Shown in pieces: positions 24,163 through 38,854 of a stretch of 64,000 bases of DNA. A model generated the notes under the pieces. It saw nothing but the letters and a program-made list of their open reading frames with translations. It did not search any database and was not told the DNA's origin. Every line of letters begins with the position of its first letter. Position 1 is the stretch's first letter. Made by a program: the position numbers and the translations under genes. Origin of the DNA: a bacterium (GTDB lineage Bacteria; Electryoneota; Electryoneia; Electryoneales; Electryoneaceae); assembly GCA_963675295.2 (NCBI GenBank), contig CAXXKJ010000002.1:1792001-1856000 (forward strand). The letters are read 5' to 3'.

Positions 24163-25482
24163 GTGCTGAAAACCCGCCGGGCGAGTGGCCGGGAAGTGTT
24201 TTCGTGGTCGTTGTACGACTTCGCGAACTCGGCCTTTGCGACAACCATTCTCGCGGTGATCTTCAACCGGTATTACGCCGGTGTGGTCGCTGGTGGGGAG
24301 TCGGGTGTCGCGGTGCCCTGGTTCGGCGAGACGCTCCAGGTTCCCGGCGCGACGATGTTCACATACGCCGTGACCATCTCGATGCTGCTGGTGGCGGTCA
24401 GCGCGCCGATCCTCGGGGCGTGGTCGGATGCCCGCGCGGCGAAGAAGCGGTTCCTCGCAGTGTATGTCACCCTCGGCGTGCTCGCTACGGCGATGCTCGG
24501 CACCGCCGGTGAAGGCGAGTGGCTCGGCACGGGGTTGTGGTTCGTGCTCGCGAACTTTGCGTTCGCCGGAGGCAACGTCTTCTACAATGCGTTTCTCCCC
24601 GAACTGGCGGACCCGGACGAGATGGGGCGGGTGTCCGGTTTCGGCTGGGGCTTCGGCTACCTCGGCGGCGGGGTGCTGCTCGCGATCAACTTGTTGATGC
24701 TCGAGATGCCCGGGCTGTTCGGCTTCGAGGAAGGCGAGCTGACGGTGCAGCACACGTTCATCTCGGTCGCGATCTGGTGGGCGGTGTTCTCGTTCCCGTT
24801 TTTCATGAACGTGCGCGAACGGGCGGTGCCGGTATCGCAGACGTTCCTCGATGGTGCGAAAGCATCGCTGCAGCGGTTGCGGACGACACTCGGGCGGGTG
24901 CGTGAACACAAGCAGCTGTGGCGTTTCCTGCTCGCCTACCTGTTCTTCAACGACGGGATCGAGACGGTCATCCTGATGGCCGCGATCTACGGCGATCAGG
25001 AGTTGGGGATGGGGCAGGGGCTGCTGGTCGCGTTCTTCCTTCTGATCCAGTTCACGGCGTTCGGCGGCTCATTGCTGTTCGGGCGAATTTCGACGAAGAT
25101 CGGCGTCAAGCCGGCGTTGATGCTCTCGCTCGGGATCTGGTGCCTGGTGGTGATCGACGCGTTTTTCATCGGCTGGACCGGCTATCCGATCACCGAGTAT
25201 TTCGTGCTGGGTGTGGTCGCCGGGCTGGTGATGGGAGCATCCCAGATGCTCGCCCGCACGATGCAGGGCCTGTTCACGCCGCCGGAACGGGAGGCCGAAT
25301 TCTTTGGCTTCTTCGCGGTGTCGGGACGGTTCGCGTCAGTGCTGGGCCCGTTGACCTTCGGCGTCATGGTCGCGATCACCGGCTCGCTGCGGTACGCTAT
25401 ACTGAGTGTAATCGGCTTCTTTCTCCTCGGGCTGCTTTTGCTCAGCTGGGTACGTGCGCCGCGCACCCGTTTAAGCCGATAA
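24163..25482 (+). CDS. MFS transporter (UMF1/Atg22-like)
   Basis: WSLYDFANSAF, FYNAFLP, GWGFGYLGG, FFNDGIET. Confidence 0.9.
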   Translation: MLKTRRASGREVFSWSLYDFANSAFATTILAVIFNRYYAGVVAGGESGVAVPWFGETLQVPGATMFTYAVTISMLLVAVSAPILGAWSDARAAKKRFLAVYVTLGVLATAMLGTAGEGEWLGTGLWFVLANFAFAGGNVFYNAFLPELADPDEMGRVSGFGWGFGYLGGGVLLAINLLMLEMPGLFGFEEGELTVQHTFISVAIWWAVFSFPFFMNVRERAVPVSQTFLDGAKASLQRLRTTLGRVREHKQLWRFLLAYLFFNDGIETVILMAAIYGDQELGMGQGLLVAFFLLIQFTAFGGSLLFGRISTKIGVKPALMLSLGIWCLVVIDAFFIGWTGYPITEYFVLGVVAGLVMGASQMLARTMQGLFTPPEREAEFFGFFAVSGRFASVLGPLTFGVMVAITGSLRYAILSVIGFFLLGLLLLSWVRAPRTRLSR

Positions 25483-25651: not shown

Positions 25652-26044
25652 TTGAAAAAGGACAATTCAAGTTCAGCCGGTCGGATCATGATCGTGGATG
25701 ACGAATCGGACATCAGCGATTTCCTCTCCACGTTCTTCCAGATGAAGGGCTACGAGACCTTTGTCGCGAATAGTGGGAAGAAAGCGATTGAAGGACTGCC
25801 CTCGTTTAATCCGCATGTGATTCTGCTCGATGTGCGCATGCCGGACATGGACGGTCTGGAAACCTTGAAGATGATCCGTGAGATGGACGACAAGGTCGGC
25901 GTGATCATGGTGACCGCGGTTCACGAGATGAACATCGGCCGGGAAGCTCTTTCACTCGGTGCGGCGGATTTCGTGACAAAGCCGGTAGATCTTGAGTATC
26001 TTGAGACGACAGTGATGGTCAAGCTGGTGAGCTTGATCCAATAG
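25652..26044 (+). CDS. Single-domain response regulator
   Basis: IVDDE, LLDVRMP, MVTA, FVTKP. Confidence 0.92.
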   Translation: MKKDNSSSAGRIMIVDDESDISDFLSTFFQMKGYETFVANSGKKAIEGLPSFNPHVILLDVRMPDMDGLETLKMIREMDDKVGVIMVTAVHEMNIGREALSLGAADFVTKPVDLEYLETTVMVKLVSLIQ

Positions 26045-26582: not shown

Positions 26583-28136
26583 TTACTGATGTTCATCCCG
26601 CAGCAGATCGTTTACCGTTTTCACCGGATTGAAGGTGCGTGCGGGCACTTCGACGAAGACGGTCAGCCAGTCCGCCATCGACCCGTTCCACAGGCCGGGC
26701 AGCTCCAGCGCTTTGAGGTCACGTCCATCCTTGGATTTCTGTGAGATGAAGGCGGTTGACGGATCGACGTACGTGTCCAGATCGTAGCTGTTGCCGTGAT
26801 GGTCACGCAGGCAACAGACGAGATCGACGGGATTGAAGTGCGTTGACGATTCGAGGATCGCCTTCTGCTGATCGTCGGATGTGTCGATCTGAACGGTTTC
26901 CACGATCTGCCGGTCGATACTGCCGTCCGAGCGCTTCACCCAGAACGGTCCCCCGCCCGGCTCGCCTTCGTTGATCACCATCCCGCAGACACGGAATGGC
27001 CGGTTAAGCGTGCTATGCAGCACCTGCACGCGGTCCTCAGTGCTCAGGTTTTCCCAGTTCGCCAGTTGAACGTCGAGTTCGTCCATCACGAACCGTCCGA
27101 TCTCGTCGAGGCGTGACGGTTCCGGGCATTCCTGCTCGAGGTCACGCAGCGCCTGGTCACGATTGGCCAGCAACTGCGCGGCGTAGCCGCCGAGTTCGCG
27201 TTTCTCGGTGAGGGTGGTCTGCACCTGCGCAGGCGGGACGACGTTGTCGACGTTCTTGATGTAGACGATGTCGGCGTCGAGGTCATTCAAGTTCTTCAGC
27301 AGCGCGCCGTGCCCGCCGGGCCGGAAGAGCAGGCGGCCGTCGTTGTCACGGAACGGCTGGTTCTCGAGGTCGGCGGCGATGGTGTCGGTGGACGGCGACT
27401 GCACGCTGAAGGAGACGTCGAAACGGGTGGTTCCGTAGCGCGCGCCCACGGTTTCGGCTTCCGCTTGAAAGCCGTCCCGGTGTTCCGGTGAAACGGTGAA
27501 GTGCAGTGCGGCGGCGCTATTGCCGGATTTAACCGTTTCATGCGCTTCGAGGAAATGTTCGGCGAGCGGTGTGCGCAGGTCATCTCCCACCCGGTGAAAC
27601 GCGATCAATCCCTTCGGCAACTGGGCAAGGTTCAAGCCATCGTCGGTCAGCAACGCGGCGAGGATAGCTCGGTAGTCACCCGAATCGTAGACCTCTTCAA
27701 GATCCTGTCCACGTTGGGCGAAAACATCCGCCAGTTGCGGGTAGAACGCGAACTTGTCGAGGTTGCCGAAAAAGGTGAGGCCGAACTCGGCGTCTTTGTC
27801 ACCAACTTTAGCGCGGGACTTGAGAGCGTTGTCGTTGAGCTCACGGTCGTCACCGAGCAGCGCGAGTAACGCCTTGAACATCCGCGATGCGGCCCCGGAG
27901 GCCGGGACGAACTTGCTGAACCGTCCCGCGGCAGCGGCTGCTTCGTGCGCACGTATCGCGGCGGCACGTTCGCCATCGTCCAGCCGCTTGATGCCGTCGC
28001 CGACGGTGCACGCTCGGTCGAGCACGGTGAACGGGACACCGTCCGCGAAGCGCTGCAATTGCTGGCGGATGGCGTCTTCGGTCAGCCCGTGGTCACGGAG
28101 TTGCTGTTTGTCCTGTTCGCTCAGGTTCAGGTTCAT
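26583..28136 (-). CDS. DUF4301 family protein (nucleotidyltransferase-like)
   Basis: KFVPASGAASRMFK, FRPGGHGAL, GEPGGGPFWV, THFNPVD, LELPGLWNG. Confidence 0.9.
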   Translation of the reverse strand: MNLNLSEQDKQQLRDHGLTEDAIRQQLQRFADGVPFTVLDRACTVGDGIKRLDDGERAAAIRAHEAAAAAGRFSKFVPASGAASRMFKALLALLGDDRELNDNALKSRAKVGDKDAEFGLTFFGNLDKFAFYPQLADVFAQRGQDLEEVYDSGDYRAILAALLTDDGLNLAQLPKGLIAFHRVGDDLRTPLAEHFLEAHETVKSGNSAAALHFTVSPEHRDGFQAEAETVGARYGTTRFDVSFSVQSPSTDTIAADLENQPFRDNDGRLLFRPGGHGALLKNLNDLDADIVYIKNVDNVVPPAQVQTTLTEKRELGGYAAQLLANRDQALRDLEQECPEPSRLDEIGRFVMDELDVQLANWENLSTEDRVQVLHSTLNRPFRVCGMVINEGEPGGGPFWVKRSDGSIDRQIVETVQIDTSDDQQKAILESSTHFNPVDLVCCLRDHHGNSYDLDTYVDPSTAFISQKSKDGRDLKALELPGLWNGSMADWLTVFVEVPARTFNPVKTVNDLLRDEHQ

Positions 28137-28421
28137 GGTGATCGCCGTAAGGAATCTGGTTGCTGGTTGTCTCGAATGTCGAGGCGAAGATAGAACGCCG
28201 TTCGGGTGGCAAGAGAGGTGTGGAAATGTTTGTGGCGTGTTCGAGAGACGCGGTCCTCTCCGAGGCGGAAACCGCGAAAACGTTACGGACGCCAGGATTC
28301 ACGGGTCGGTAATCGTTGCTTTATTCACCGGGGATTCTGTACCTTTCTTCACAAAGTTTTTTGGGATTATGCTCGGATGGGGTGTAAGGCTGCCTCTCCG
28401 ATGGGCGGAAGGACCCGGTGC

Positions 28422-30971
28422 ATGAACTGGATCCAGAACCTGCTGCGTGGTGATCGGGATGAAGGCGATCCAGCCGGAAATCTCGAGGATTTACGCCGTC
28501 GTTTCGACAGTTTCCGTGAGCTGGTCGAGAAGAACAACGAAGTGCTTGGCCTGATCGGCGACATGGAAGAGAAGGCGCAGGGCGAATTTCTCTTCGACAT
28601 CGCGTATGTGCGCGGCTGTGTTGACCGTGTTGAGGCGGCGGTGGGAACGGTCATTGATCTGATCATCGAGATCGGCGGCCTGGAATACGAAACATTGCGC
28701 GCCCGTTACGCCGCCATCCTTGGCCAGATCCACAATCTCCTGCCCGGGTCGGATTTCCACCACGGCGGCCCGCTGATTCTCGACTTCGAACGCATCAACC
28801 GGATTCACAGCTCCAGTGTCGGCGGCAAGAACGCACAGCTCGGTGAAATGCGAGAGCTCGGGCTGCGCGTTCCGGACGGATTCGCGATCACCGCCGCTGG
28901 GTTCCGGCTGTTCCTCAAGGACAACAAGCTCAACGAGTTGATCCAGGATACGCTGAAGCAGCTCGATATCAAGTGCCAGCAGGATCTGGTCAACGCCAGT
29001 GGCTTGCTGCGTGCGATGATTCTCGCGGCACCGATTCCGGCAGAGCTTGCGGACTCGATCAAGACGTCGTATGAGGAGCTGACGAAACGGACGGGCGAGG
29101 AGTTGATCGCCCTGCGTTCCAGCGCGGTCGGCGAGGACACGCTCTACAGTTTCGCGGGGCAGTACTCGAGCTTCCTCAACGTGAGCAAGGATCAACTGCT
29201 GCTGAAGTATCGCGAAATTCTCTCCAGCAAATACAGCCCGCGTGCGATCTACTACTTCCTCAGCCATTCGCTGGAAGAGGCCGGCCTGTCGATGAGTGTC
29301 GGTTGTACACGGATGGTGGACGCGGCCAGCAGTGGAGTGATCTACACCCGCGATCCGCTCGATCCGGACAGCGAGTGCATTCATGTGCACGCGATTTACG
29401 GGCTAGGCCCGTACCTCGTCGGCGGTACGTTGACGCCGGATGTCTTCACCATCCACCGCGACGGATTCAAGGTAGAGAGCCGCACGATCCGTGACAAACC
29501 GGTGCAACTTCGCCCGGCGGCGAAGGGCGGAACGGAAGAACACCCGGTTGAGGAAGGCCGTCGCAGCGAACCGTGCCTGAACGATGAACAGTTGGCCGAA
29601 CTCGGTGAGCTGGCAGTGAAGCTGGAAGAGCATTACGACCATCCGCAGGACATCGAGTTCGCGTACGATCAGGATGGCAAGCTGTTCCTGTTGCAGTCGC
29701 GTCCGCTACGGACCATCTGCACGCAGCCGTCGTTTGAACTGCCTGATATGAGCGGACATATCAAGATTGCATGCGGCGGAACGACGGTCTGCCCCGGCGC
29801 GGGGCTGGGTCGCGTGGTCCACGTTTCGAGCAAGGAATCGCTGGAGGACGTGGAACAGGGCGACGTGGTGGTCGCGGCGAATCCGATGCCGTCGATTGGG
29901 CTGGTGCTGGACAAGGTGTCGGCGGTGGTGACCGAGGTAGGCTCTTCCGCCAGCCACTTGGCGGCGCTGGTGCGTGAACGGCGCATCCCGACGATTGTTG
30001 GCGTTGCCCAGGCACGCAGCCGTCTGCCCCGGGGCGAGGTGGTGACCGTGGATGCGACCGGAACCTGCATCTACTCCGGCGAACATCAGAAGCTGGTGCA
30101 GGCGCGTCTTCCGGAATATGACCTTTTCCAGGACACGGCGATTTTCGACATGTTACGGCGGTTGTTAAAGATGATCAGCCCGCTGAACATGGTCAATCCG
30201 GGCGATCCGGAATTCCGCGCGGAACGTTGCCTGACACTGCATGATATTGTCCGTTATTCCCACCAACGCGGGATCGAGGAAATCTTCTCACACGCCCGCA
30301 GCCTCGGCAAACGCAAGGAATTTGGCGCTCAACTGAAGTCGGTGCTGCCGTTGCCGGTCCATGTGCTCAACCTGGAAGAGCCGGAAGTTCCGGGCCGGAA
30401 GCAGGTGTACGACGACAACTCGCTGCCCTCGGAACCGATGCAAATGTTCTGGAACGGGATGCTGCAGGAAAAGTGGCCGTTCGCATATCCCGATCCGACA
30501 CGGTTGCAGGTTGCGCGTGACAAGGACGCCGGACTGCCGGTTGAGGAACAATTTACTGAACACAGTTTCGCGGTGATCCGCAAAGAATACATGCTCGCCA
30601 GTCTGCGTCTCGGCTATCACTTCACCAGCGTCGAGGCGGAACTGTGCGACGACCCGAACCGCAACTTCATCCGCGTGCATTACAAGGGTGGCGGTGCGGC
30701 CGATGAACGCCGCCGTCGGCGAATTTCGCTGCTTGAGGAACTGCTCGACCGGATGGGCTTCGAGCACACGGTCAAGTCCGACTTCATTGATTGCCGTGCG
30801 CAGTTCCTGCCCCGTGACCAGGCGGAGTTGAACCTTCAGCGGGTTGGACGCCTGGTGATGCTGACGAAGCAGCTGGACATGGCGTTGTCCAACGAACGGA
30901 TCACCCGCTGGTACATTGAAGATTTTGCGCGCAAATTGGATCTCGAACACAAGCAGGCTTTCCCGCTATGA
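28422..30971 (+). CDS. PEP-synthase-like dikinase (ATP-grasp and His swivel) with a non-canonical C-terminal domain
   Basis: VGGKNAQLGE, RSSAVGED..SFAGQY, QDIEFA, LQSRPL; TEVGSSASHLAA His motif; no PEP-binding barrel motifs seen. Confidence 0.85.
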   Translation: MNWIQNLLRGDRDEGDPAGNLEDLRRRFDSFRELVEKNNEVLGLIGDMEEKAQGEFLFDIAYVRGCVDRVEAAVGTVIDLIIEIGGLEYETLRARYAAILGQIHNLLPGSDFHHGGPLILDFERINRIHSSSVGGKNAQLGEMRELGLRVPDGFAITAAGFRLFLKDNKLNELIQDTLKQLDIKCQQDLVNASGLLRAMILAAPIPAELADSIKTSYEELTKRTGEELIALRSSAVGEDTLYSFAGQYSSFLNVSKDQLLLKYREILSSKYSPRAIYYFLSHSLEEAGLSMSVGCTRMVDAASSGVIYTRDPLDPDSECIHVHAIYGLGPYLVGGTLTPDVFTIHRDGFKVESRTIRDKPVQLRPAAKGGTEEHPVEEGRRSEPCLNDEQLAELGELAVKLEEHYDHPQDIEFAYDQDGKLFLLQSRPLRTICTQPSFELPDMSGHIKIACGGTTVCPGAGLGRVVHVSSKESLEDVEQGDVVVAANPMPSIGLVLDKVSAVVTEVGSSASHLAALVRERRIPTIVGVAQARSRLPRGEVVTVDATGTCIYSGEHQKLVQARLPEYDLFQDTAIFDMLRRLLKMISPLNMVNPGDPEFRAERCLTLHDIVRYSHQRGIEEIFSHARSLGKRKEFGAQLKSVLPLPVHVLNLEEPEVPGRKQVYDDNSLPSEPMQMFWNGMLQEKWPFAYPDPTRLQVARDKDAGLPVEEQFTEHSFAVIRKEYMLASLRLGYHFTSVEAELCDDPNRNFIRVHYKGGGAADERRRRRISLLEELLDRMGFEHTVKSDFIDCRAQFLPRDQAELNLQRVGRLVMLTKQLDMALSNERITRWYIEDFARKLDLEHKQAFPL

Positions 30972-32338
30972 AGAATCCAATTGCACGTGTGCGCCGACTC
31001 TGGGTCCGGCTGGTCCAGTCAAGGTACTTGATCCCGGCGACAGCGATCATGTTCGTGATCGTGTTTGCCGGGTCGACCTACCTGCTGTTCCGTTCCGCGC
31101 AGAGCACGGGCTTCCTGCGGCATCAGATTGCGCTACTTGCCGGCCTGGTGTTCATCATGTTTCTCTTCGGCCTGATGATCGCGGCGTACCAGCAGCGACT
31201 AAGTAAGAAACTGCGGCTGGTGATCGGTGAACAGGACCAGATTCTCGCCAGCGTGCTGACCAACAGCGTCGACGCGATTATCGTCTTTGACAATGAGGAA
31301 CGCATCCAGATGTGGAACCGGGGTGCGCAGCTCATCTTCGGTTTTTCGCCGGAGGAGATGCTCGGGCAATCGTTCCGCGTCCTGATTCCTCCAGACATCA
31401 ACCCCGAGGAAGAAATCAAGCGGCTGGACAGCATGGTCGCAAAGTACGGGTATGTACAGAATTACGTGACTCATCGAATGACGAAGGATGGCAGGCGGAT
31501 CACGGTCGATATCTCGCGCACCCCCTACCGAAACGAAAACGGGGAGTACGAGGGCTGCACTTCGGTGGTCAAGGATGTGACCGAGAAGCTGGAGTTCGAT
31601 CAGAAGATGTACAACGCCGAAAAGCTGGCGTCGATTGGTTTGCTGGCGTCCGGTGTCGCGCATGAGATCAACAACCCGTTATCGATTGTGCTCGGGTTTA
31701 CCGATTTGCTGAAGGAACGCTTCCCCGAAGACAGTTCCGAATGGCAGGACCTGGACAAGATCGAAAGCAACGCCGTCCAGGCGAAGAAAATCGTCGAGGA
31801 TCTGCTCGGCTTCAGCCGCACCAAGCAGGGCGTCGACAAGGCAGCGAACCTGGCTGAAAGCGTCGAATCGCTGACCGGGTTCATCCGGCAGACACGGATT
31901 GTGAAGAAGGTCGAGCTGGAGGTAGACCTGACGAACAGTTTGCCATTGGTCAACGGCGATCCACGTGAAATTCAACAGGTGCTGCTGAACCTGGTCAACA
32001 ACGCTGTCGCGGCGATGGATGGCAAGGAAGGCCTTGTTCGCATTCATGCCAAACAGTTGGATGAAGACTGGGTCGAGCTGCAGGTTGAAGACAACGGCAA
32101 AGGCATTTCGGCTGACGACAAGCAGCGCGTGTTTGACCCGTTCTTCACAACCAAGGAATTCGGTGAGGGGACGGGTTTGGGCTTGTCACTGTGTTACGGG
32201 CTGGTGAAAAAGTGGGGTGGATCGATCGAGTTCACCAGTTTGACCTCGGAGGAAAGCCCGGACGGCAGCAGCGGCACGACATTCACGATACGAATTCCGG
32301 TTTATGACGCCGAATTCAACCCGGAGGCGGCCTCATGA
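30968..32338 (+). CDS. Membrane PAS sensor histidine kinase
   Basis: Two TM helices, PAS (WNRGAQLIFG), AHEINNPL, NLVNNA, DNGKG, FFTTK, GTGLGL; 4-bp overlap with the upstream gene. Confidence 0.93.
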   Translation: MKNPIARVRRLWVRLVQSRYLIPATAIMFVIVFAGSTYLLFRSAQSTGFLRHQIALLAGLVFIMFLFGLMIAAYQQRLSKKLRLVIGEQDQILASVLTNSVDAIIVFDNEERIQMWNRGAQLIFGFSPEEMLGQSFRVLIPPDINPEEEIKRLDSMVAKYGYVQNYVTHRMTKDGRRITVDISRTPYRNENGEYEGCTSVVKDVTEKLEFDQKMYNAEKLASIGLLASGVAHEINNPLSIVLGFTDLLKERFPEDSSEWQDLDKIESNAVQAKKIVEDLLGFSRTKQGVDKAANLAESVESLTGFIRQTRIVKKVELEVDLTNSLPLVNGDPREIQQVLLNLVNNAVAAMDGKEGLVRIHAKQLDEDWVELQVEDNGKGISADDKQRVFDPFFTTKEFGEGTGLGLSLCYGLVKKWGGSIEFTSLTSEESPDGSSGTTFTIRIPVYDAEFNPEAAS

Positions 32339-32724
32339 AACAGCGCATACTCGCCGTCGATGACGAACCCGACATGCTGATCCTGTTGCAGCGGATCATC
32401 ATGGAGAAGACGGCTTACGAGATTGTGACGACAAATTCGGCGCTGGAGGTGCCGGGTTTGCTCGACACGCAACAGTTTGACGTCGTGATCACCGACCTCA
32501 GCATGCCGAAGCTGGATGGGTTGGATATCCTGAAGCTGGTGCGTGACCGGGACAAGGGCGAGCTTGTTATCCTGATCACGGCCTTCGGAGATTATGAAAC
32601 GTCCGAGAAAGCCCGTGAACTAGGGGTTCATGATTATATTCACAAACCATTTCGCAAAGAGCAGATTCTGACAACGGTCGAGCAAGCGATGGAAATCCAG
32701 CGTGCTCGCAAAGCAGAATCGTAA
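32335..32724 (+). CDS. Single-domain response regulator
   Basis: AVDDE, ITDLSMP, ITAFG, HKPF; 4-bp overlap with the kinase. Confidence 0.92.
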   Translation: MKQRILAVDDEPDMLILLQRIIMEKTAYEIVTTNSALEVPGLLDTQQFDVVITDLSMPKLDGLDILKLVRDRDKGELVILITAFGDYETSEKARELGVHDYIHKPFRKEQILTTVEQAMEIQRARKAES

Positions 32725-32761
32725 CATAACCATGTGGCTGTTCACCTGAGGAGCGAACTAC

Positions 32762-33283
32762 ATGGAGCACCTTCACGCCGGGGACATCATGGTCCCCCTC
32801 GACCTTTACCCCCACATCCCCTATTGGTTTACCATCCGTCAGGCGATCGCCGAGATGGAATCGGCGGAGATCGAGACCAATGGGCGGCGTTCCATTCCGC
32901 GCGTGGTCCTGGTTTTCGACGAAACGTACCGTCTGATGGGCTTCATCCGTCGCCGTGACGTGTTGCACGGTCTGCTTCCCGGCTACCTGCTGGAGGACAC
33001 GGACAAGGAAATCCGTGAGGCGTACGACATCCACGTCGATCCGCATCTGAGCGAAGTGTTTGAAACGCAGGGCGAGGATATCAAGGAATTGTCCTCGCGT
33101 CCCGTGAGTTCGGTGATGCACCCGATTGTGCACAGCGTCCAGCATGACGACACACTGCTGAAGGTTGTCCAGGAGTTGGTCGTGAACAACGTGTACATGC
33201 TTCCCGTGATGAAGGAAGGGAAGATTGTCGGTGTTGTCCGGACACTGGATGTTTTGCACGCCGTGGCCAAGCTGGTTTTGTAA
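32762..33283 (+). CDS. CBS domain pair protein
   Basis: AGDIMVP..YP, VSSVMHP, LPVMKEGKIVGVVR. Confidence 0.85.
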   Translation: MEHLHAGDIMVPLDLYPHIPYWFTIRQAIAEMESAEIETNGRRSIPRVVLVFDETYRLMGFIRRRDVLHGLLPGYLLEDTDKEIREAYDIHVDPHLSEVFETQGEDIKELSSRPVSSVMHPIVHSVQHDDTLLKVVQELVVNNVYMLPVMKEGKIVGVVRTLDVLHAVAKLVL

Positions 33284-33365
33284 TCGAGAGAGAGTCGTGA
33301 TCTGAGTTCATTCCGCCGCCGCCAGCAGGGGGGCGAGTGTGGCGAAGCTAGCGAAGGACGTGCGG

Positions 33366-34919
33366 ATGGCTGAGCATAAACATGACCTGAAAAAGGGTGT
33401 GCCGCTCCACGACGAACAACATCACCCGGGGGGGCTGCCGCGGAAACCCCAGGATATTACTCTTGCTGAACCGCGCGATAAGCTGGACCTCAAGCGAATT
33501 ACGCTGATTGTTGTCGGTCTTCTGATGTTTACAGCGGTCTACATGTCGCCATCGTGGGGCGACGCTGTCGACCCGGTGGGGGATACGTTTGCGCTCTCAC
33601 GTGAGGGCAAGGCGGCGATCGGGCTGTTCCTGCTCGCGGCGACGTGGTGGGTGTTTGAGGTCATACCAATTGGCGTTACCTCCATCGCCATCGGTGTGTT
33701 CCAGGCGATGTTCCTGATCCGTGATCCACGGGTCGCGTTCACCGATTTCTTCGATCCATCCGTGTGGTTCATCTTCGGTTCGCTGGTGATCGGCAAGGTC
33801 TTCTCCAAGACCGGGCTGACGCAGCGGATGGCGTACCGCATGCTGGTGATCGTAGGGGAGAAGACGGCGCTGATTCTGCTCGGTGTGTTCCTGATGACGT
33901 CCGCGATGACGCTCATCATGGCGCACACGGCCGTCGCGGCAGCGATGTATCCGCTGTTGCGCGCGATCTACTCGATGTATTCGACGTCCTCTACGCCGAC
34001 GAAATTCGGGAAGGGGATGTTCATCGGAATGGCGTTCGTTGCCGGCGCGGGATCGATCATCACGTTGCTCGGCGCGGCACGTGGCGCGGTCGGCATCGGG
34101 TTCTTCAAGGACATTGTCGGACGGGAAATCTCGTTCTTCGAGTACTCGTACTACATGTTCCCGGTCGGCATGTTGATGACGATCCTTCTCTGGGTCTACA
34201 TCTGGTTCATCTTCAAACCGGAGAAAGCGCGCATTCCCGGCCTGCGGGCAAGAGCGAAAGATCTGTACCACCGTCTTGGCCCGATGAAGCGCAGCGAGTG
34301 GATCGCAATCATCCTGGTCGTCGGCGTGATCTTGTTCCTCAGCGCGCGGTCGTTTGTCCCGCTGCTGGAACCGTTCAGCAAGTCGGCGATCATCCTGATC
34401 ACGACGATCCTGTTCTTCATGTTTAAAATCCTCAACCTGAAGGATCTGGAAGAGATTCCGTGGAACATCATCCTGCTCTTCGGCGGAGCGATGAGCATCG
34501 GCTTCTGCCTCTGGCAGACCGGCGCGGCAACGTGGATGGCGGTACAGTTCATCATGCTGCTGCAGAATGCGAACTGGTTCGTGTTCGTGCTTGGGATTAC
34601 GGCGTTCGTGCTGATCATGACGAATCTGATCATGAACGTGGCGGCGATCGCGATTTCGTTGCCGGTGGCGCTGGTGATCGCGCAGTACCTGCATGTGGCA
34701 CCGGAAGTGATTTTCTTTGGCAGCCTGGTTGCGGCGGGGATGCCGTTCCTGTTCCTCGTCGGCGCGGCACCGAACGCTATCGCCTACGAGTCGAATCAGT
34801 TCACGTCAGGTGAGTTCTTCCGTGCGGGGATTCCGGCCAGTGTGCTGTTACTGGTTGTGGTCGGGTTGTTTGTCGCGTTCATCTGGCCGATGATGGGCAT
34901 GCCGATTTTGTTGCAGTGA
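33366..34919 (+). CDS. SLC13/DASS family anion (sulfate/dicarboxylate) transporter
   Basis: WWVFEVIPIGVT, IPWNIILLFGGAM, GAAPNAIAY; many TM helices; alternative GTG start at 33339. Confidence 0.9.
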   Translation: MAEHKHDLKKGVPLHDEQHHPGGLPRKPQDITLAEPRDKLDLKRITLIVVGLLMFTAVYMSPSWGDAVDPVGDTFALSREGKAAIGLFLLAATWWVFEVIPIGVTSIAIGVFQAMFLIRDPRVAFTDFFDPSVWFIFGSLVIGKVFSKTGLTQRMAYRMLVIVGEKTALILLGVFLMTSAMTLIMAHTAVAAAMYPLLRAIYSMYSTSSTPTKFGKGMFIGMAFVAGAGSIITLLGAARGAVGIGFFKDIVGREISFFEYSYYMFPVGMLMTILLWVYIWFIFKPEKARIPGLRARAKDLYHRLGPMKRSEWIAIILVVGVILFLSARSFVPLLEPFSKSAIILITTILFFMFKILNLKDLEEIPWNIILLFGGAMSIGFCLWQTGAATWMAVQFIMLLQNANWFVFVLGITAFVLIMTNLIMNVAAIAISLPVALVIAQYLHVAPEVIFFGSLVAAGMPFLFLVGAAPNAIAYESNQFTSGEFFRAGIPASVLLLVVVGLFVAFIWPMMGMPILLQ

Positions 34920-35199: not shown

Positions 35200-36177
35200 T
35201 CACCGGCTATCGCTGGCACCGAAGCTGCGCGGCATTGCGATTTCGCCTTTCAGCGCCCGGTCGAAGTAGCTGATCGTCTGCTGCAGCCCTTCCTTGAGCT
35301 GCACCTTCGGTTCCCAGCCGAGCACGTCCTTCGCGCGGGTGATGTCCGGCTTACGCTGCTTCGGATCGTCCTGCGGAAGGTCCTCGAAGCGGATCTCCAC
35401 CGAGCTGCCGATCTGCGAGCGGATCTCCTCCGCCAGTTCGAGGATGGTGAACTCGTTCGGGTTGCCGATGTTGACCGGCAGGTGGTAATCGTCCGTGTTC
35501 ATCAACCGCATCAGCCCGTCGATCAGGTCCGAAACGTAGCAGAAGCTGCGTGTCTGGGATCCGTCGCCGTACACGGTCAGCGGGTTTCCTTCCAGCGCCT
35601 GCACGACGAAATTGGAGACTACGCGTCCGTCGTTGGCGGCCATGCGCGGGCCGTACGTATTGAAGATGCGGGCGATGCGCGTGTCAACGTTGTTCTGGCG
35701 ATGGTAGTCCATGATCAACGTTTCGGCGGCACGCTTGCCCTCATCGTAGCAGCTGCGCACGCCGATCGGATTGACATGTCCCCAGTAGTCTTCCTGCTGC
35801 GGGTGGACCTGCGGATCGCCGTACACCTCAGACGTTGACGCCTGCAGGATTCTCGCCTTTACACGTTTCGCCATGCCGAGCATGTTGATCACGCCCATCA
35901 CGGACGTTTTGATCGTTTTGACGGAGTTGTACTGATAGTGCACCGGGCTGGCGGGGCAGGCGAGGTTGTAGATGGTGTCGACCTCGAGCAGAATCGGCTC
36001 AACAACATCGTGGCGCACGAGTTCGAAATGGTCGTGCTTGAGCACGTGACGGATATTTTCACGTGATCCGGTGAAGAAATTGTCCAGGCAGAGGACTTCG
36101 TGGCCCTGGTCCAACAGGCGGTCGATCAGGTGGCTGCCGAGGAACCCGGCGCCGCCGGTGACGAGCACACGTTTCAC
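35200..36177 (-). CDS. UDP-glucuronate decarboxylase (UDP-xylose synthase)-like SDR
   Basis: [41 protein letters not shown]. Confidence 0.93.
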
Positions 36178-36297: not shown

Positions 36298-38028
36298 TCA
36301 GGCGTGGATGCTGTCCTCACCGATGTAGCCCTGGTTCGCAAGGTACAGCAGCACCTTGTGCACTGCTTCCTCGGGACTGAGCTCGGTGGTATCGATCACG
36401 ATCTCGGCGTTCTCCGGCACATCGTACGGATCGGAGATGCCTGTGAACTCCTTGATGATGCCCGCGCGCGCCTTGGCGTACAAGCCCTTGCGGTCACGCT
36501 GCTCGCAGACTTCGAGCGGCGTGTTAACGTGCACCAGGATGAAGCCGCCGAGCGGCTCGATCATTTCGCGGACGGCGGACCGGGTCGACTCATACGGCGC
36601 AATCGGCGCGCAGATGGCGATACCACGGTTCTTCGTGATTTCGCTGGCGACGAAGCCGATACGCAGGATGTTGATGTCGCGGTGTTCTTTCGAGAAGCCC
36701 AGCTCGCTGGACAGGTTCTTGCGGACGATGTCACCGTCCAGCAGCGTCACCGGACGTCCACCGATCTGCAGCAGCTTCGGCAGCAGCGCGTTGGCGACCG
36801 TCGACTTGCCGGAACCGGAAAGGCCGGTGAAGAAGACAGTGAAGCCCTGGCGGCTGCGTGGCGGGTAGGTCTTGCTGAGTTCGTTGACCACTTCCGGGTA
36901 CGAGAACCAGCTCGGAATTTCACGGCCATCGTGCAGACGGTTGCGGACTTCGCTTTCCTTCAACCGCCGGGTGCTGCGGCCGTTGTCAACCTCGGACTCG
37001 CGGGCGTAGGCGTCCCGTTCCGGCATGTACACCAGCTCTTCGTAAGGCCGGAGTTCGACGCCGAGGTCTTCCTTGTGCTCCTCGAACGCCTTGATGATGT
37101 CTTCCTGCGGCGGGGTCAGTTCCGGACCGTTGCCATTATCGGCTGAAAGGGTTGGACGGAACATGAAGATCGAAGAACCGTAGTTCTTGCGGATCAACGC
37201 TTGCAGCATCACTTCGCGCACGCCGGCCATCTTGAACGGCGAGGGCAGCAGACCGAGGATCGTCGTCTGCTGGGGGAAGTGCTTGATCACTTCGCGGTAG
37301 CAACGAATCCGCGTGTAATGGTCGATATCCTCACGCAGGATTTCGCCGACGGTCGGCTGAATGATCAGGTTGGCGTCGGTTTCCTTGGCGGCGAGACGGG
37401 TCGCTTCCACGTCCGGCCGGTGAATCGGATAGCGAGTGTCGAAGGACAGCATCTTGCGCCAACCGCGGCGACCGATTCGAGCGCGTACGTCACGCGGGGT
37501 CGCGCGCAGGTCCGGGAAGTCGTAGTGCAGCGGATACTGCACGCCTTCCACGCGTCCGCCGACATACACCGGGTTGGTCTTGCTCAGGTAGCTGGCGACG
37601 TAGCGGTTGGTCGGATCTTTAGTGCCGAACAGTGCCATCAATTCGGCGTCCTGGTCCGGGGTCCACTTGTCTTCCACATGCAGCACGGCGAGCATCACGC
37701 CTTCCTGGTCACGCAGGGTGATCTTGTCGCCGGCGTTGACGCCTTCTGCAAACTGCTCAGATATATCGAGCACGAAAGGCATCGGCCAGAAGACTCCATC
37801 CGGCAGACGCATTTCGCGCAGGACTCGGTCGTACTCGGAGCTGGTCATGTAGCCACGCAGCGGGGAGTAAGCGCCGCTGGTGAGGAGTTCGAGCTCGAGG
37901 GTCTGACGCGGGGTCAAGTCCCATGAAGCCCAATCTCGGGATTCCACACGGATTTCGTCATGTCGCTTCTCGTCGACCATCAGATCGACCAACGTGCCGC
38001 CGTGCGGACGGATCAAATGCTGTTCCAT
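36298..38028 (-). CDS. cysC: ATP-sulfurylase-like domain (degenerate) fused to adenylyl-sulfate kinase
   Basis: C-terminal TGLSGSGKST, LDGD, RDRKGLY, FTGISDPY intact; N-terminal Sat fold with altered catalytic motifs. Confidence 0.88.
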   Translation of the reverse strand: MEQHLIRPHGGTLVDLMVDEKRHDEIRVESRDWASWDLTPRQTLELELLTSGAYSPLRGYMTSSEYDRVLREMRLPDGVFWPMPFVLDISEQFAEGVNAGDKITLRDQEGVMLAVLHVEDKWTPDQDAELMALFGTKDPTNRYVASYLSKTNPVYVGGRVEGVQYPLHYDFPDLRATPRDVRARIGRRGWRKMLSFDTRYPIHRPDVEATRLAAKETDANLIIQPTVGEILREDIDHYTRIRCYREVIKHFPQQTTILGLLPSPFKMAGVREVMLQALIRKNYGSSIFMFRPTLSADNGNGPELTPPQEDIIKAFEEHKEDLGVELRPYEELVYMPERDAYARESEVDNGRSTRRLKESEVRNRLHDGREIPSWFSYPEVVNELSKTYPPRSRQGFTVFFTGLSGSGKSTVANALLPKLLQIGGRPVTLLDGDIVRKNLSSELGFSKEHRDINILRIGFVASEITKNRGIAICAPIAPYESTRSAVREMIEPLGGFILVHVNTPLEVCEQRDRKGLYAKARAGIIKEFTGISDPYDVPENAEIVIDTTELSPEEAVHKVLLYLANQGYIGEDSIHA

Positions 38029-38290: not shown

Positions 38291-38854
38291 GTGAGAAGGC
38301 AATCGTGTGACGACATCAACCTATGCAGACTGGAGGATTCCATTTTCTTCCGCAAGAAGCCCAATGATTTCGTAATTCTCGTTGTCTGCACGGCCAACAT
38401 CACGCGCAGTCCGTATATCGCGGCATTGTTGCGCAAAACGCTGGTCGAAAGCGGACTGCGGTTCCGGCGCCGGATTGTGGTGAAATCCGCCGGGACCAAC
38501 GCGACCGCGAATCAACAGGCGCTGCCGACCATCGCAACCATCGCCTACACACGTGGAATCGACCTACAGGAGCACCGCTCAACCCTGCTTACGGGTGAAC
38601 TGATCAGCGAGGCGTCGCTGGTCCTGACAGCGGAAATGCAGCACAAGGACTCGATTCTCAAGCGTTTCCCCGAAGCGTACGACAAGGTCTACCAGATCAC
38701 TGAATATGGCAGGCTGGGCAACGATCCTGGAATCCGGGATGTGATCGATCCGACCGGTCGTGATCTGGAGGAGTTCCAGGAGTTCGTCGGGATTGCACAC
38801 GAAGAAGTGAAGCGAGTGCTTGAACACATGGTTCGAATCGGAGCGATCGAATAG
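38291..38854 (+). CDS. Low-molecular-weight protein tyrosine/arginine phosphatase
   Basis: VCTANITRSP (CX5R), SAGT, DVIDP; start uncertain. Confidence 0.85.
   Translation: MRRQSCDDINLCRLEDSIFFRKKPNDFVILVVCTANITRSPYIAALLRKTLVESGLRFRRRIVVKSAGTNATANQQALPTIATIAYTRGIDLQEHRSTLLTGELISEASLVLTAEMQHKDSILKRFPEAYDKVYQITEYGRLGNDPGIRDVIDPTGRDLEEFQEFVGIAHEEVKRVLEHMVRIGAIE

Follow-up and report, generated by a model that had tools for sequence, protein, structure and literature searches.

The window analyzed here, a 64,000-nucleotide stretch of bacterial DNA, contains a five-gene cassette representing an uncharacterized module that we found almost only in dsrA-bearing microbes, and whose core is an atypical dikinase with a predicted novel domain in place of the PEP/pyruvate barrel. 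The cassette occupies positions 28422–34919 of the plus strand as five co-oriented open reading frames, which encode a His-swivel dikinase (P0001, 849 aa, 28422–30971), a membrane PAS histidine kinase (456 aa, 30968–32338), a REC-only response regulator (129 aa, 32335–32724), a CBS-pair protein (173 aa, 32762–33283), and a DASS/SLC13-family anion permease (526 aa, 33339–34919). As described in the initial annotation, 4-bp overlaps join the first three genes; both read ATGA in the sequence (30968–30971 between dikinase and kinase stop and start, 32335–32338 between kinase and regulator), and all five reading frames were found. An alternative GTG start at 28206 would lengthen the dikinase to 921 aa, and we placed its start at ATG 28422 because relatives measure about 850 aa. 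A convergent downstream gene on the minus strand (36298–38028), treated as context only, encodes a Sat-CysC fusion of ATP sulfurylase and APS kinase (Pfam PUA_2, ATP-sulfurylase, and APS_kinase) that lies beside the cassette within the genus only (L047 and L048). A literature search returned no paper describing the dikinase cassette.

The host genome carries dsrA, aprA, and sat. Across samples of four phyla, the dikinase family occurred in 173 of 244 dsrA-positive vs. 7 of 438 dsrA-negative genomes, with corresponding values of 22/37 vs. 0/42 in the host's own phylum, 17/25 vs. 0/176 in the phylum of G082, 40/55 vs. 1/96 in that of G124, and 94/127 vs. 6/124 in that of G097; because related genomes are not independent, Fisher p-values overstate this association. 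Many of the 71 dsrA-positive genomes in which the family was not found, and of the seven dsrA-negative genomes possessing it, are incomplete MAGs. From the opposite direction, dsrA was present in 64 of the 72 genomes behind non-Calditrichota loci vs. none of 14 control genomes. The dsrA and dikinase genes share a contig, separated by 9–18 kb, in G020, in 8 of 17 dikinase-bearing genomes from G082's phylum, and in 4 of 41 from that of G124. The initial annotation mentioned similar clusters in sulfate-reducing Deltaproteobacteria; this holds insofar as the family tracks dsrA, but the family is spread more widely and includes the host phylum, which is labeled Calditrichota, not Deltaproteobacteria.

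Pfam assigned only PPDK_N and PEP-utilizers domains to the dikinase. The ATP-grasp domain (residues 131–432, 28812–29717; PPDK_N, E 1.6e-86) contains K136, R232, E238, D239, D410, E412, Q425, and R427, all invariant in an alignment of 33 sequences, as are G507, A510, H512, A514, R518, and E519 of the swivel phospho-histidine domain (residues 478–546, 29853–30059; PEP-utilizers, E 2.5e-15; His512 codon at 29955–29957). The ATP-grasp and the swivel histidine are thus intact and of PEP-synthase type. The best NCBIfam model was PEP synthase NF005057, which scored 347 bits against a cut-off of 598 and aligned over model positions 6–472 of 798 only; a second model likewise fell below its curated cut-off (323 vs. 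740). Sequence matches to the PDB, the best of them to PEP synthase, ended at residue 562, and Foldseek searches with the full-length model matched PEP synthase 2ols and rifampin phosphotransferase. Relatives are annotated in public records as "pyruvate, water dikinase." Residues 1–117 (28422–28772) had no Pfam or NCBIfam match and were predicted by AF2 to form three long helices (17–52, 60–85, and 87–106), with a conserved DMEEKAQGE-type motif and with D47, E50, K51, Q53, and D59 invariant across the 33 sequences; this bundle matched no Pfam family or solved fold. The atypical character of the enzyme, its retained catalytic motifs, and its additional N-terminal helical region were thus all as first described.

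The C-terminal 285 residues (565–849, 30114–30968; P0122), which presumably serve as acceptor or effector, are predicted to form a novel alpha+beta domain, not a PEP/pyruvate barrel. Neither the window's protein nor any of 19 family members had a Pfam match in this region (PEP-utilizers_C, 0 of 19), and hhalign gave a probability of 0.5% against the barrel of a 912-aa PPDK-like protein encoded in the same genome. The AF2 model (pLDDT 75.5) consists of beta-meander sheets and helices; a Foldseek search with it returned nothing at E ≤ 0.001, and the best VIA-wide structure match reached Z 7.0 over 65 residues only. Structure prediction and fold search therefore agreed with the initial annotation that the barrel motifs are missing. 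About 29 columns are invariant among 19 sequences and are rich in Arg, His, Lys, Asp, Glu, and Cys (the set includes C603, H607, D608, R611, H614, H733, E738, R763, R764, R767, D787, K816, and D819), and the domain is present in 1386 clusters of the representative library. We regard as scarcely credible that the protein is an ordinary, divergent PEP synthase with a degenerate barrel: its best family match and the public annotations point that way, but both model scores lie below curated cut-offs, the alignment covers only the first 472 model positions, and the hhalign result, the predicted fold, and the missing PEP-utilizers_C matches all disfavor it, in a genome that already has a barrel-bearing protein.

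Gene linkage was strongly conserved, both in the host's phylum and across phyla. Among 20 loci of the host's phylum, six had all five genes, four had dikinase, kinase, and regulator, and five had other subsets with the regulator and/or the CBS protein. The cross-phylum set comprised the best 80 of 239 related loci, 75 with a full dikinase reading frame and 57 of those with at least 5 kb downstream; as these are the loci most similar to the query, the neighbor counts describe the closest subfamily. In the 57 informative loci of this best-80 set, which span more than ten phylum labels, the dikinase was followed by the regulator in 52, the CBS protein in 46, the kinase in 42, and the DASS permease in 33, with all four partners in 28 and at least one in 56. 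Thirteen of these 57 had the CBS protein without DASS and none the reverse, and in 10 the regulator lay beside the dikinase without an adjacent kinase. Because the arrangement recurs across phyla, it is not a matter of chance. With a predicted non-barrel C-terminal domain and conserved linkage, neither of the outcomes that the initial annotation had set against its own reading, a divergent barrel or unconserved linkage, was what we found. Paralogous dikinases (up to nine copies per genome in G097's phylum) have their own REC neighbors, among them REC-only proteins at L061, L075, and L083, a pattern that fits signaling better than a single metabolic step. Within the cassette loci there was no conserved downstream enzyme able to use a phosphorylated product. 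At single loci (L078, L090, and L094) the cassette is followed by aconitase B, a fumarase-class lyase, and an aldehyde dehydrogenase, and sulfatases neighbor it at L075.

The histidine kinase has two transmembrane helices separated by a loop of ∼11 residues, a cytoplasmic PAS domain (residues 94–207) left unmentioned in the earlier description, and HisKA and HATPase_c domains. Its reported near-lack of a periplasmic sensor is accurate for the window but not in general, as most orthologous kinases reach ∼730 aa and include a Cache-like periplasmic region (dCache_1, under the curated cut-off). The same applies to the regulator, which matches only Response_reg here and so has no output domain, whereas most orthologs carry an additional C-terminal tail of ∼55 residues with weak NtrC/Fis-HTH likeness; D9, D54, T82, and K104 are invariant in 35 orthologs. 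The missing Cache sensor and regulator tail are lineage-specific losses, so that the case for a regulator obliged to act post-translationally is weaker. Complex prediction for the dikinase–REC pair gave a median score of 0.54 (runs of 0.54, 0.65, and 0.44) against 0.00 for the best control, the runs sharing at least 64% of contacts with partner pLDDT of at least 82. Among test cases, 58 of 80 solved complexes and 2 of 110 mismatched pairs scored high enough to pass, and scores of 0.60 or under belonged to only seven of the 80 solved complexes plus both passing mismatched pairs, so that by the tool's own calibration the score lends weak support to a dikinase–regulator contact.

The window's permease passes TIGR00785 (202.7 bits vs. 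a cut-off of 198.6; also Pfam Na_sulph_symp), with altered substrate/Na+ motifs. In alignment with VcINDY, AHT and MNV take the place of the two SNT motifs, and SPPNA reads AARGA; these changes are conserved across the 40 cassette DASS sequences compared. The protein is equally distant from carboxylate and sulfate carriers of known structure and no closer to the sulfate carrier SLC13A1. A SulP permease stands in the DASS position at L120, L103, and L104, and TauE/SafE is the immediate upstream neighbor of the dikinase or a dikinase paralog at L043, L044, L046, L059, L063, L082, L092, L112, and L120. An adjoining DASS, SulP, or TauE permease was present in 34 of the 50 loci with enough flank and absent in the other 16. 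The CBS-pair protein has its Pfam CBS match at residues 115–169.

Among known systems, PEP synthase (PpsA) shares the order of ATP-grasp then swivel histidine, with about 30% identity there and with nucleotide- and His-site residues kept. It differs in having its own TIM barrel where the cassette dikinase has an unrelated predicted alpha+beta domain, in lacking the 117-residue N-terminal bundle, and in context, the cassette enzyme sharing its operon with genes for a two-component pair, a CBS protein, and an anion permease, almost only in dsrA-bearing genomes. PTS Enzyme I and PTS-Ntr have a homologous swivel His domain, and in them the state of a phospho-enzyme conveys metabolic status and, by way of partner proteins, gates transporters. 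Enzyme I, however, takes its phosphoryl group from PEP via a barrel and works with HPr/EIIA partners, whereas the cassette dikinase would use ATP via ATP-grasp, with putative REC and CBS partners. Schmeling and colleagues are reported to have found in 2004 that phenylphosphate synthase is stimulated by its CBS-containing protein 3, a likeness to the cassette's CBS protein. Rifampin phosphotransferase and HpeHI are described as reusing ATP-grasp and swivel histidine with another acceptor domain (PMC4844700, PMC12167813), but there (RPH/HpeH) the acceptor domain precedes a C-terminal swivel, while the cassette dikinase has a central swivel followed by its new C-terminal domain. The substrates of these two enzymes and of phenylphosphate synthase are aromatic or antibiotic hydroxyls, unrelated to an anion permease; none of the three was among the matches of the fold search with the C-terminal model, and NF041857 gave 243 bits against a cut-off of 999. 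VadK (Rv1127c) of Mycobacterium tuberculosis is described (PMC13400623) as a PPDK-derived protein that has lost its metabolic role, autophosphorylates on histidine, and regulates other proteins, a precedent for a signaling dikinase. By its description, it derives from PPDK, not PEP synthase, and the abstract mentions neither a C-terminal domain of this kind nor a setting with a two-component system, CBS protein, or permease. Closest in setting are Desulfobacteraceae clusters combining DASS-type sulfate transporters, Cache-domain histidine kinases, and CBS-domain proteins, proposed as sulfate-uptake regulators (PMC11887813); they differ in their reported WalR-type DNA-binding regulators, and the main text of that paper does not mention a dikinase, though the gene may be drawn unnamed in its figures or supplements.

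Our tentative reading, to which we assign somewhat less than an even chance, is of a signaling dikinase, modulated by the two-component system and the CBS protein, that controls sulfur-oxyanion uptake within a horizontally spread module of dissimilatory sulfur metabolizers with dsrAB/aprA/sat. The dikinase, derived from a PEP synthase, would use ATP at its ATP-grasp to yield phosphorylated His512, AMP, and Pi, so we propose that the phospho-enzyme level reflects the adenylate state. The swivel domain would pass the phosphoryl group to the domain that replaced the barrel, with its putative acceptor/effector site. The membrane kinase, through Cache and PAS domains in most lineages and PAS only here, may signal anion availability via the REC protein, which would touch the dikinase and whose small HTH-like tail, in most lineages, probably binds DNA as well. 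The CBS-pair protein would be an accessory subunit sensing an adenosyl ligand. The output would be control of uptake through the adjacent permease (DASS here, SulP/TauE elsewhere) of a sulfur oxyanion, most likely sulfate, the anion being inferred from transporter family names.

Several observations sit awkwardly with this signaling reading and lead to a metabolic one, its main rival, that we consider rather unlikely, though worth weighing: a small-molecule dikinase whose C-terminal catalytic site hands the phosphoryl group of His512 to a low-molecular-weight acceptor, or in reverse makes ATP from AMP, stimulated by the CBS protein and merely induced by the two-component system. The catalytic machinery is intact, and the ∼29 invariant, mostly charged C-terminal columns, dense in Cys, His, Asp, Arg, Lys, and Glu, are more reminiscent of an active site for small molecules than of a docking surface. 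Since most regulators have an HTH-like tail, the role of the two-component system could be limited to inducing the operon, leaving the dikinase untouched, and such tails together with Cache kinases are typical of substrate-induced operons. A single direct protein-protein gate is difficult to square with three unrelated permease folds, and the exchange of permeases while dikinase and CBS protein stay suggests that the solute, not the carrier, matters; candidate acceptors are the imported anion and sulfate-pathway metabolites such as a sulfur oxyanion, an adenylyl compound, or a 2-oxo or sulfonated acid. To our knowledge, however, no phosphorylated sulfur oxyanion occurs in metabolism, no conserved enzyme follows to use a product, up to nine paralogs with REC neighbors would be unusual for one pathway step, and the C-terminal fold gives no ligand hint. 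The loci without an adjoining permease count against both readings. Known relatives act in the metabolic manner, on the published accounts of rifampin phosphotransferase (PMC4844700) and HpeHI (PMC12167813).

It is quite improbable that the dikinase acts as a non-canonical histidine kinase, passing phosphate from His512 to Asp54 of the adjacent REC protein in an ATP-to-AMP-driven reaction parallel to, or replacing, the membrane kinase. The regulator's rank as the most constant neighbor (within the best 80 of 239 loci), its occurrence without an adjacent kinase, its invariant phospho-acceptor residues, the REC-only proteins adjoining paralogs, and the weakly supportive complex score are consistent with such a transfer, as are VadK's description as an autophosphorylating "histidine kinase" (PMC13400623) and a census mention of REC-PPDK fusions (PMC5847659), which does not imply family membership. 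Yet 42 of the 57 informative loci (best 80 of 239) have a cognate HisKA kinase, which here is coupled translationally, the conserved 285-residue domain would be left without a role, and the complex prediction reported no interface. Less probable still is an incidental sulfur link, with the module sensing and importing a di- or tricarboxylate or other anion and dsrAB co-occurring through ancestry, habitat, or co-transfer. Most DASS carriers with solved structures transport carboxylates, the window's protein is no nearer SLC13A1, single loci place aconitase B, the fumarase-class lyase, and the aldehyde dehydrogenase after the cassette, and dsrA-positive genomes within a phylum are akin, so their counts are not independent. 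Nevertheless, the strong contrast is repeated in four phylum samples, dikinase and dsrA genes are physically close in three phyla, SulP and TauE/SafE are the families from which the replacement permeases come, sulfatases and Sat-CysC occur as neighbors, and both carboxylate-binding SNT motifs are replaced. Because the module is almost confined to carriers of dissimilatory sulfite reductase, the cassette is probably part of the sulfate-respiration machinery or of its control.

The five co-oriented genes of the cassette lie where the initial annotation had placed them, as confirmed by open reading frame, Pfam and NCBIfam analysis. All are on the forward strand: an 849-aa atypical dikinase (28422–30971), a histidine kinase with HisKA and HATPase_c Pfam domains (30968–32338), a response regulator (32335–32724), a CBS protein (32762–33283) and a DASS (SLC13-family) permease (33339–34919). 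The described 4-bp overlaps were read directly in the sequence as ATGA at 30968–30971 and 32335–32338, the stop/start junctions being ...CTATGAAG... and ...TCATGAAA..., and simple promoter and terminator scans found sites in numbers not above those in shuffled sequence. Upstream are an Atg22-like MFS permease (24163–25482, forward), a second REC-only protein (25652–26044, forward) and a divergently transcribed gene for a 517-aa DUF4301 protein (26583–28136, reverse). Downstream are an NAD-dependent epimerase/dehydratase (35200–36177, reverse), an ATP sulfurylase/APS kinase fusion (Sat-CysC; 36298–38028, reverse) and a low-molecular-weight phosphatase-family protein (38291–38854, forward). Synteny with the cassette is confined to the genus for Sat-CysC and the epimerase, and to the genus plus one sister genus for the MFS permease, second REC protein and DUF4301 protein, and all five were therefore rejected as cassette parts. 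Because no PAPS reductase was found in the host genome (92.8% completeness), PAPS from the Sat-CysC fusion may serve sulfation instead of assimilation.

The dikinase contains an ATP-grasp domain (PF01326, PPDK_N; E 1.6e-86) and a swivel domain (PF00391; E 2.5e-15). Its residues 118–562 correspond to positions 1–472 of the PEP synthase models NF005057 and TIGR01418, with scores below the curated cut-offs (347 bits vs. 598, and 323 vs. 739.75), and the same stretch aligns with solved PEP synthases (8a8e, E 1.5e-69; 2ols, E 4e-59); no PDB sequence matched past residue 562. In an alignment of 33 full-length relatives (42–72% identity to the window protein), the nucleotide-site residues K136, R232, E238, D239, D410, E412, Q425 and R427 and the swivel-motif residues G507, A510, H512, A514, R518 and E519 are invariant. 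To judge from its sequence, the dikinase thus derives from a PEP synthase and keeps the ATP-to-His512 machinery intact. In the full-length AlphaFold2 model, three long helices are predicted for residues 1–117, and D47, E50, K51, Q53 and D59 of this bundle are invariant in the same 33 sequences. The rifampin phosphotransferase model NF041857 scored 243 bits vs. a cut-off of 999; in that enzyme the order is ATP-grasp, substrate-binding domain and C-terminal swivel, whereas the window dikinase has a central swivel followed by 285 residues.

The C-terminal region (residues 565–849) had been described as lacking the PEP/pyruvate barrel, and hhalign, Pfam and an AlphaFold2 model bear this out. Structure prediction and fold search, applied to the possibility that a divergent PEP-binding barrel had been overlooked, revealed no barrel: the model (pLDDT 75.5, pTM 0.72; 19-row alignment) consists of helices with beta-hairpin sheets packed against them, and the full-length model (pLDDT 80.3) agrees in C-terminal architecture. 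PF02896 (PEP-utilizers_C) was not matched, and hhalign against the PEP-utilizers_C barrel of the host's 912-aa PPDK-like protein gave a probability of 0.5%. An ordinary PEP synthase is therefore rejected on the sub-cut-off model scores, the missing PF02896 match, the hhalign result and the non-barrel model, and we give this reading almost no credence. PEP/pyruvate interconversion is also independent of the cassette dikinase, since the host genome (G000) encodes two genuine PEP-utilizers_C barrel proteins (G000:C2:622807-623664 and C2:1153437-1154486) in frames of 594 aa (Enzyme I-like) and 912 aa (PPDK-like).

Searches of the 19 C-terminal sequences against Pfam returned no family beyond single chance matches. 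Foldseek against the PDB gave nothing at E ≤ 0.001 (top match 2plg_A, E 0.014, TMq 0.21), the top match of the wide VIA-align search, to 65 residues of a ferredoxin-like design (Z 7.0), was within the stated background, and the ESM Atlas returned only clusters of the dikinase's own kind. No fold is accordingly assigned to the modeled domain, and these absent matches do not prove a novel fold. Across the 19 sequences, 29 columns are invariant, many of them charged or nucleophilic, including (full-length numbering) C603, H607, D608, R611, H614, H733, E738, R763, R764, R767, D787, K816 and D819. A new and strongly conserved domain thus occupies the position of the pyruvate barrel.

The candidates of a single search included 875 proteins with this domain at E ≤ 0.001, here called the dikinase family; almost all are ~850 aa long and have the same two Pfam domains. 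In a library of representatives at 50% identity, 1386 clusters contain the domain. Stand-alone or fused forms were considered and rejected, as most matches of 156–499 aa are partial genes from short contigs or split swivel-plus-C-terminal pieces; the sole long representative (P0308, 1078 aa) has no additional Pfam domain, and no REC fusion occurs among the forms listed. Family members are annotated merely as "pyruvate, water dikinase," and the window cassette is one instance of a large, uncharacterized and misannotated family.

Neighborhood analysis, which addressed the initial annotation's caveat that the gene linkage might not be conserved, showed that the cassette recurs across phyla. The C-terminal domain was present in 22 of 79 sampled genomes of the host's own phylum, Calditrichota, and 20 loci were examined. 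All five genes are present in six of these (three from the window's genus), and dikinase, kinase and regulator in four; dikinase and kinase followed by the contig end, dikinase–regulator–CBS–DASS, dikinase–regulator and dikinase–CBS–DASS were each found once, and dikinase–CBS twice. The remaining loci comprise one dikinase standing alone, two in which the contig ends right after the dikinase, and one distant paralogue with no downstream cassette gene. Among all species genomes, 260 pattern matches were obtained, 239 of which encode a relative, and the best 80 of the 239 were kept. These carry the labels Acidobacteriota, Zixibacteria, Planctomycetes, Ignavibacteria, Omnitrophota, Binatia, Thermodesulfobacteriota, Myxococcota, Latescibacterota, Poribacteria, Elusimicrobia and others. 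Neighbors were scored with purpose-built HMMs from the Calditrichota orthologues. A full dikinase open reading frame was present at 75 of the 80 loci, 57 of them with at least 5 kb downstream; in these 57, which describe the closest subfamily (the 80 loci most similar to the window), the regulator was found downstream of the dikinase in 52, the CBS protein in 46, the kinase in 42 and DASS in 33, with the complete set in 28 and one or more of the four in 56. The dikinase thus shows tight and ancient linkage to genes for the REC and CBS proteins, for a sensor kinase and for an anion permease of changeable family. At six loci with Ignavibacteria or Zixibacteria labels (L081, L088, L111, L119, L122, and L125), a convergent pair on the opposite strand follows the cassette, encoding a penicillin-amidase-family protein (~800–870 aa) and a 4Fe-4S protein (~355–380 aa; Pfam basis for L081 only), which is probably lineage synteny.

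The kinase and regulator carry the HisKA, HATPase_c and REC domains by which a two-component system is recognized in sequence. The scant periplasmic sensor noted initially is true of the window kinase but is not general, having been lost in the window's genus: most orthologous kinases outside it are ~730 aa long and have a periplasmic region whose dCache_1 match stays below the curated cut-off. Residues 94–207 form a cytoplasmic PAS domain that had been overlooked. All 35 regulator orthologues share D9 and D54 of the REC acidic pocket together with T82 and K104, and the REC domain is unusually conserved (45–60% identity to the window in the aligned non-Calditrichota rows). The absence of an output domain likewise holds for the window protein, which ends at residue 129 without a C-terminal tail, but reflects local loss. 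Orthologous regulators are mostly 181–198 aa and have a conserved tail after REC (...EPY..A..AF..EY.RRL..R.GGD....A.RSGL...), which is missing in the window, its genus and one sister genus and shortened in another sister genus. The tail profile weakly matched helix-turn-helix (HTH) chains of the NtrC family (5m7n, E 0.0013; 4fth, E 0.24). REC joined to a Fis-type (HTH_8-like) HTH is a PrrA/ActR-like architecture; the window regulator, ending before the tail, has no HTH_8-like DNA-binding domain. The CBS protein has one CBS motif in Pfam (115–169) and an N-terminal half of about the right length for another, without a Pfam match.

Contact between dikinase and regulator was modeled in one complex-prediction job with the full dikinase (33-row alignment) and the regulator (35-row alignment). 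Scores were 0.54, 0.65 and 0.44 (median 0.54), graded as weak support, with the best control at 0.00, at least 64% of contacts in common among runs and a partner pLDDT of at least 82. In calibration, 58 of the 80 solved complexes reached the pass mark, as did 2 of the 110 mismatched pairs, and scores of 0.60 or lower accounted for just 7 of the 80 solved complexes but for both passing mismatches. The predicted contact is thus a hint only.

The window permease passes TIGR00785 (202.7 bits vs. a cut-off of 198.6) and matches PF00939 (E 8.3e-49), and is no nearer in sequence to SLC13A1 than to carboxylate carriers. In VcINDY-type DASS proteins, Ser-Asn-Thr motifs at the hairpin tips bind Na+ and substrate. 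Aligned to VcINDY (4f35), the window protein has AHT and MNV in place of the two SNT motifs and AARGA in place of SPPNA, with Arg at the Pro-Asn position, and conservation of AHT, MNV and AARGA extends across the 40 cassette DASS proteins in the comparison; the altered motifs suggest another coupling ion or substrate. Two further Na_sulph_symp genes are present in the host genome. At locus L120 a SulP permease (Sulfate_transp plus STAS, by Pfam) follows the CBS gene, and a SulP identified by similarity occupies this position at L103 and L104 too (873 and 858 bits). TauE/SafE permeases, Pfam-verified at L059, L063 and L120 and identified by similarity at other loci, lie immediately upstream of the dikinase or a paralogous dikinase at L043, L044, L046, L059, L063, L082, L092, L112 and L120. 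Across the 50 loci whose flanks were long enough on either side, the adjoining permease was DASS in 29, SulP in three and TauE in two, and 16 had none.

Paralogous dikinases (~870–925 aa; C-terminal domain ~29–31% identical) belong to a module of their own, together with a hybrid kinase-REC, a REC-only protein, TauE/SafE and a conserved 236–267 aa protein without Pfam match (L059:224-7144, L063:139-6094, L046:3120-7879, L109:8710-12649, and L118:16919-18843). Genomes of the Thermodesulfobacteriota sample have up to nine dikinase-family matches each. Stacked copies were also observed: L083:7312-18861 has four dikinase genes in a row (850, 354 and 869 aa, plus a fourth truncated where the locus ends), interspersed with a REC-only gene, and L120:1821-18145 has three, between which lie SulP and TauE permeases and a CxxCxxCC-domain protein. 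At L075:152-2918, and at that locus only, two sulfatase genes are directly upstream of a paralogous dikinase.

Association with dissimilatory sulfur metabolism is the strongest new fact. Host dsrA, which adjoins a dsrB-like gene, scored 576.8 bits vs. a cut-off of 392.85, and aprA, which adjoins a stand-alone sat, 877 bits vs. 641.75 (G000:C2:1133752-1136027 and C2:4336250-4339507). Judged by these matches, the host carries dsrA, aprA and sat, the genes that mark dissimilatory sulfate reduction or the reverse process. Both dsrA and aprA occur in 37 of the 79 Calditrichota genomes, and since aprA tracks dsrA almost perfectly in the phylum, it cannot separate sulfate from sulfite reduction; a DsrD search gave zero matches in any genome, controls included. 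In Calditrichota the dikinase family was present in 22 of 37 genomes with dsrA and none of 42 without it. The corresponding counts were 17/25 and 0/176 in Acidobacteriota (201 genomes), 40/55 and 1/96 in Zixibacteria (151 genomes) and 94/127 and 6/124 in Thermodesulfobacteriota (251 genomes). Over the four samples, the center genome of each having been picked for its dikinase, this amounts to 173/244 (~71%) with dsrA and 7/438 (~1.6%) without. Within the four Calditrichota families containing dsrA, the dikinase is missing from all six dsrA-negative genomes. For the non-Calditrichota loci, dsrA (E ≤ 1e-60) was detected in 64 of 72 source genomes (60 above the cut-off), and in none of 14 control genomes. 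Closed genomes of the classical sulfate-reducer phylum carry dikinase-family genes.

On one contig of genome G020, dsrA and the dikinase are 9–18 kb apart, separated by carbonic anhydrase, sirohaem genes, a sigma-54 activator and DsrMK-like genes; this spacing recurs in 8 of 17 dikinase-bearing Acidobacteriota genomes and 4 of 41 in Zixibacteria. Fisher tests of the dsrA association gave very small p-values, which overstate it because related genomes are not independent and many are incomplete. The dikinase family is nearly restricted to dsrA-bearing genomes, and we regard an incidental sulfur link as improbable.

In a 2025 study of Desulfobacteraceae, clusters of DASS-type sulfate transporters are described that also contain Cache kinases, CBS proteins and WalR-type regulators, and sulfate uptake is proposed to be controlled at two levels; a dikinase is nowhere mentioned in the main text (PMC11887813). 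Four syntenic unknown genes, given no names, are contained in acidobacterial dsr clusters (PMC6018796), and the words histidine kinase, response regulator and dikinase are all absent from PMC5840216. Full-text literature searches yielded no paper in which the dikinase is connected with dsr genes or with DASS, CBS or two-component genes, though figures or supplements may depict it unnamed. Re-purposed dikinases for comparison are rifampin phosphotransferase, HpeHI and VadK. The last is reported to autophosphorylate on His and to regulate other proteins (PMC13400623); a dikinase of this type would have protein partners rather than a small-molecule acceptor.

Since the permeases come from three families, the dikinase is linked to Dsr, Sat-CysC and sulfatases occur as neighbors and the Desulfobacteraceae offer a precedent, we infer that the imported anion would be a sulfur oxyanion, most likely sulfate. 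Our tentatively favored reading is that the dikinase is a regulator coupling adenylate state and a two-component signal to uptake. It rests on the high copy number, the REC neighbors in both paralogue groups, retention of the regulator without the kinase, the weak complex score and the lack of any enzyme conserved downstream. In the main rival reading, the protein would be a true small-molecule dikinase whose substrate is the imported anion or a pathway metabolite. In its favor are the C-terminal domain, conserved in the manner of an active site, and the HTH-like tail in most regulators; we hold it to be somewhat less likely than the regulatory reading. A variant in which the dikinase is the phosphodonor of the regulator is a good deal more doubtful.

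A more specific form of the regulatory reading, itself unlikely as a whole, is an as yet unrecognized PTS-like regulatory phosphorelay common to sulfate respirers and other Dsr-bearing microbes of many phyla. In such a relay, the ATP-driven swivel-His dikinase would sense the adenylate state of the cell and swap phosphoryl groups or signals with the REC and CBS proteins by way of an acceptor domain of new fold, and sulfate (sulfur-oxyanion) permeases of three unrelated families would be gated after translation.

Dissimilatory sulfate reduction drives a large part of anaerobic carbon turnover, and to our knowledge the sensing of sulfate and the regulation of its costly uptake and activation are poorly understood. 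If the PTS-like phosphorelay is true, it would represent a new class of signaling kinase and account for the way in which cells adjust sulfate uptake to their energy status. If the cassette more broadly controls, or is an unknown step in, sulfur-oxyanion uptake, it would fill a gap in the regulation of the pathway, correct a widespread misannotation that inflates counts of gluconeogenic PEP synthases in anaerobes and provide a new genomic marker for Dsr-based metabolism, and the swivel-His dikinase superfamily would gain a new acceptor domain and a new set of partners.
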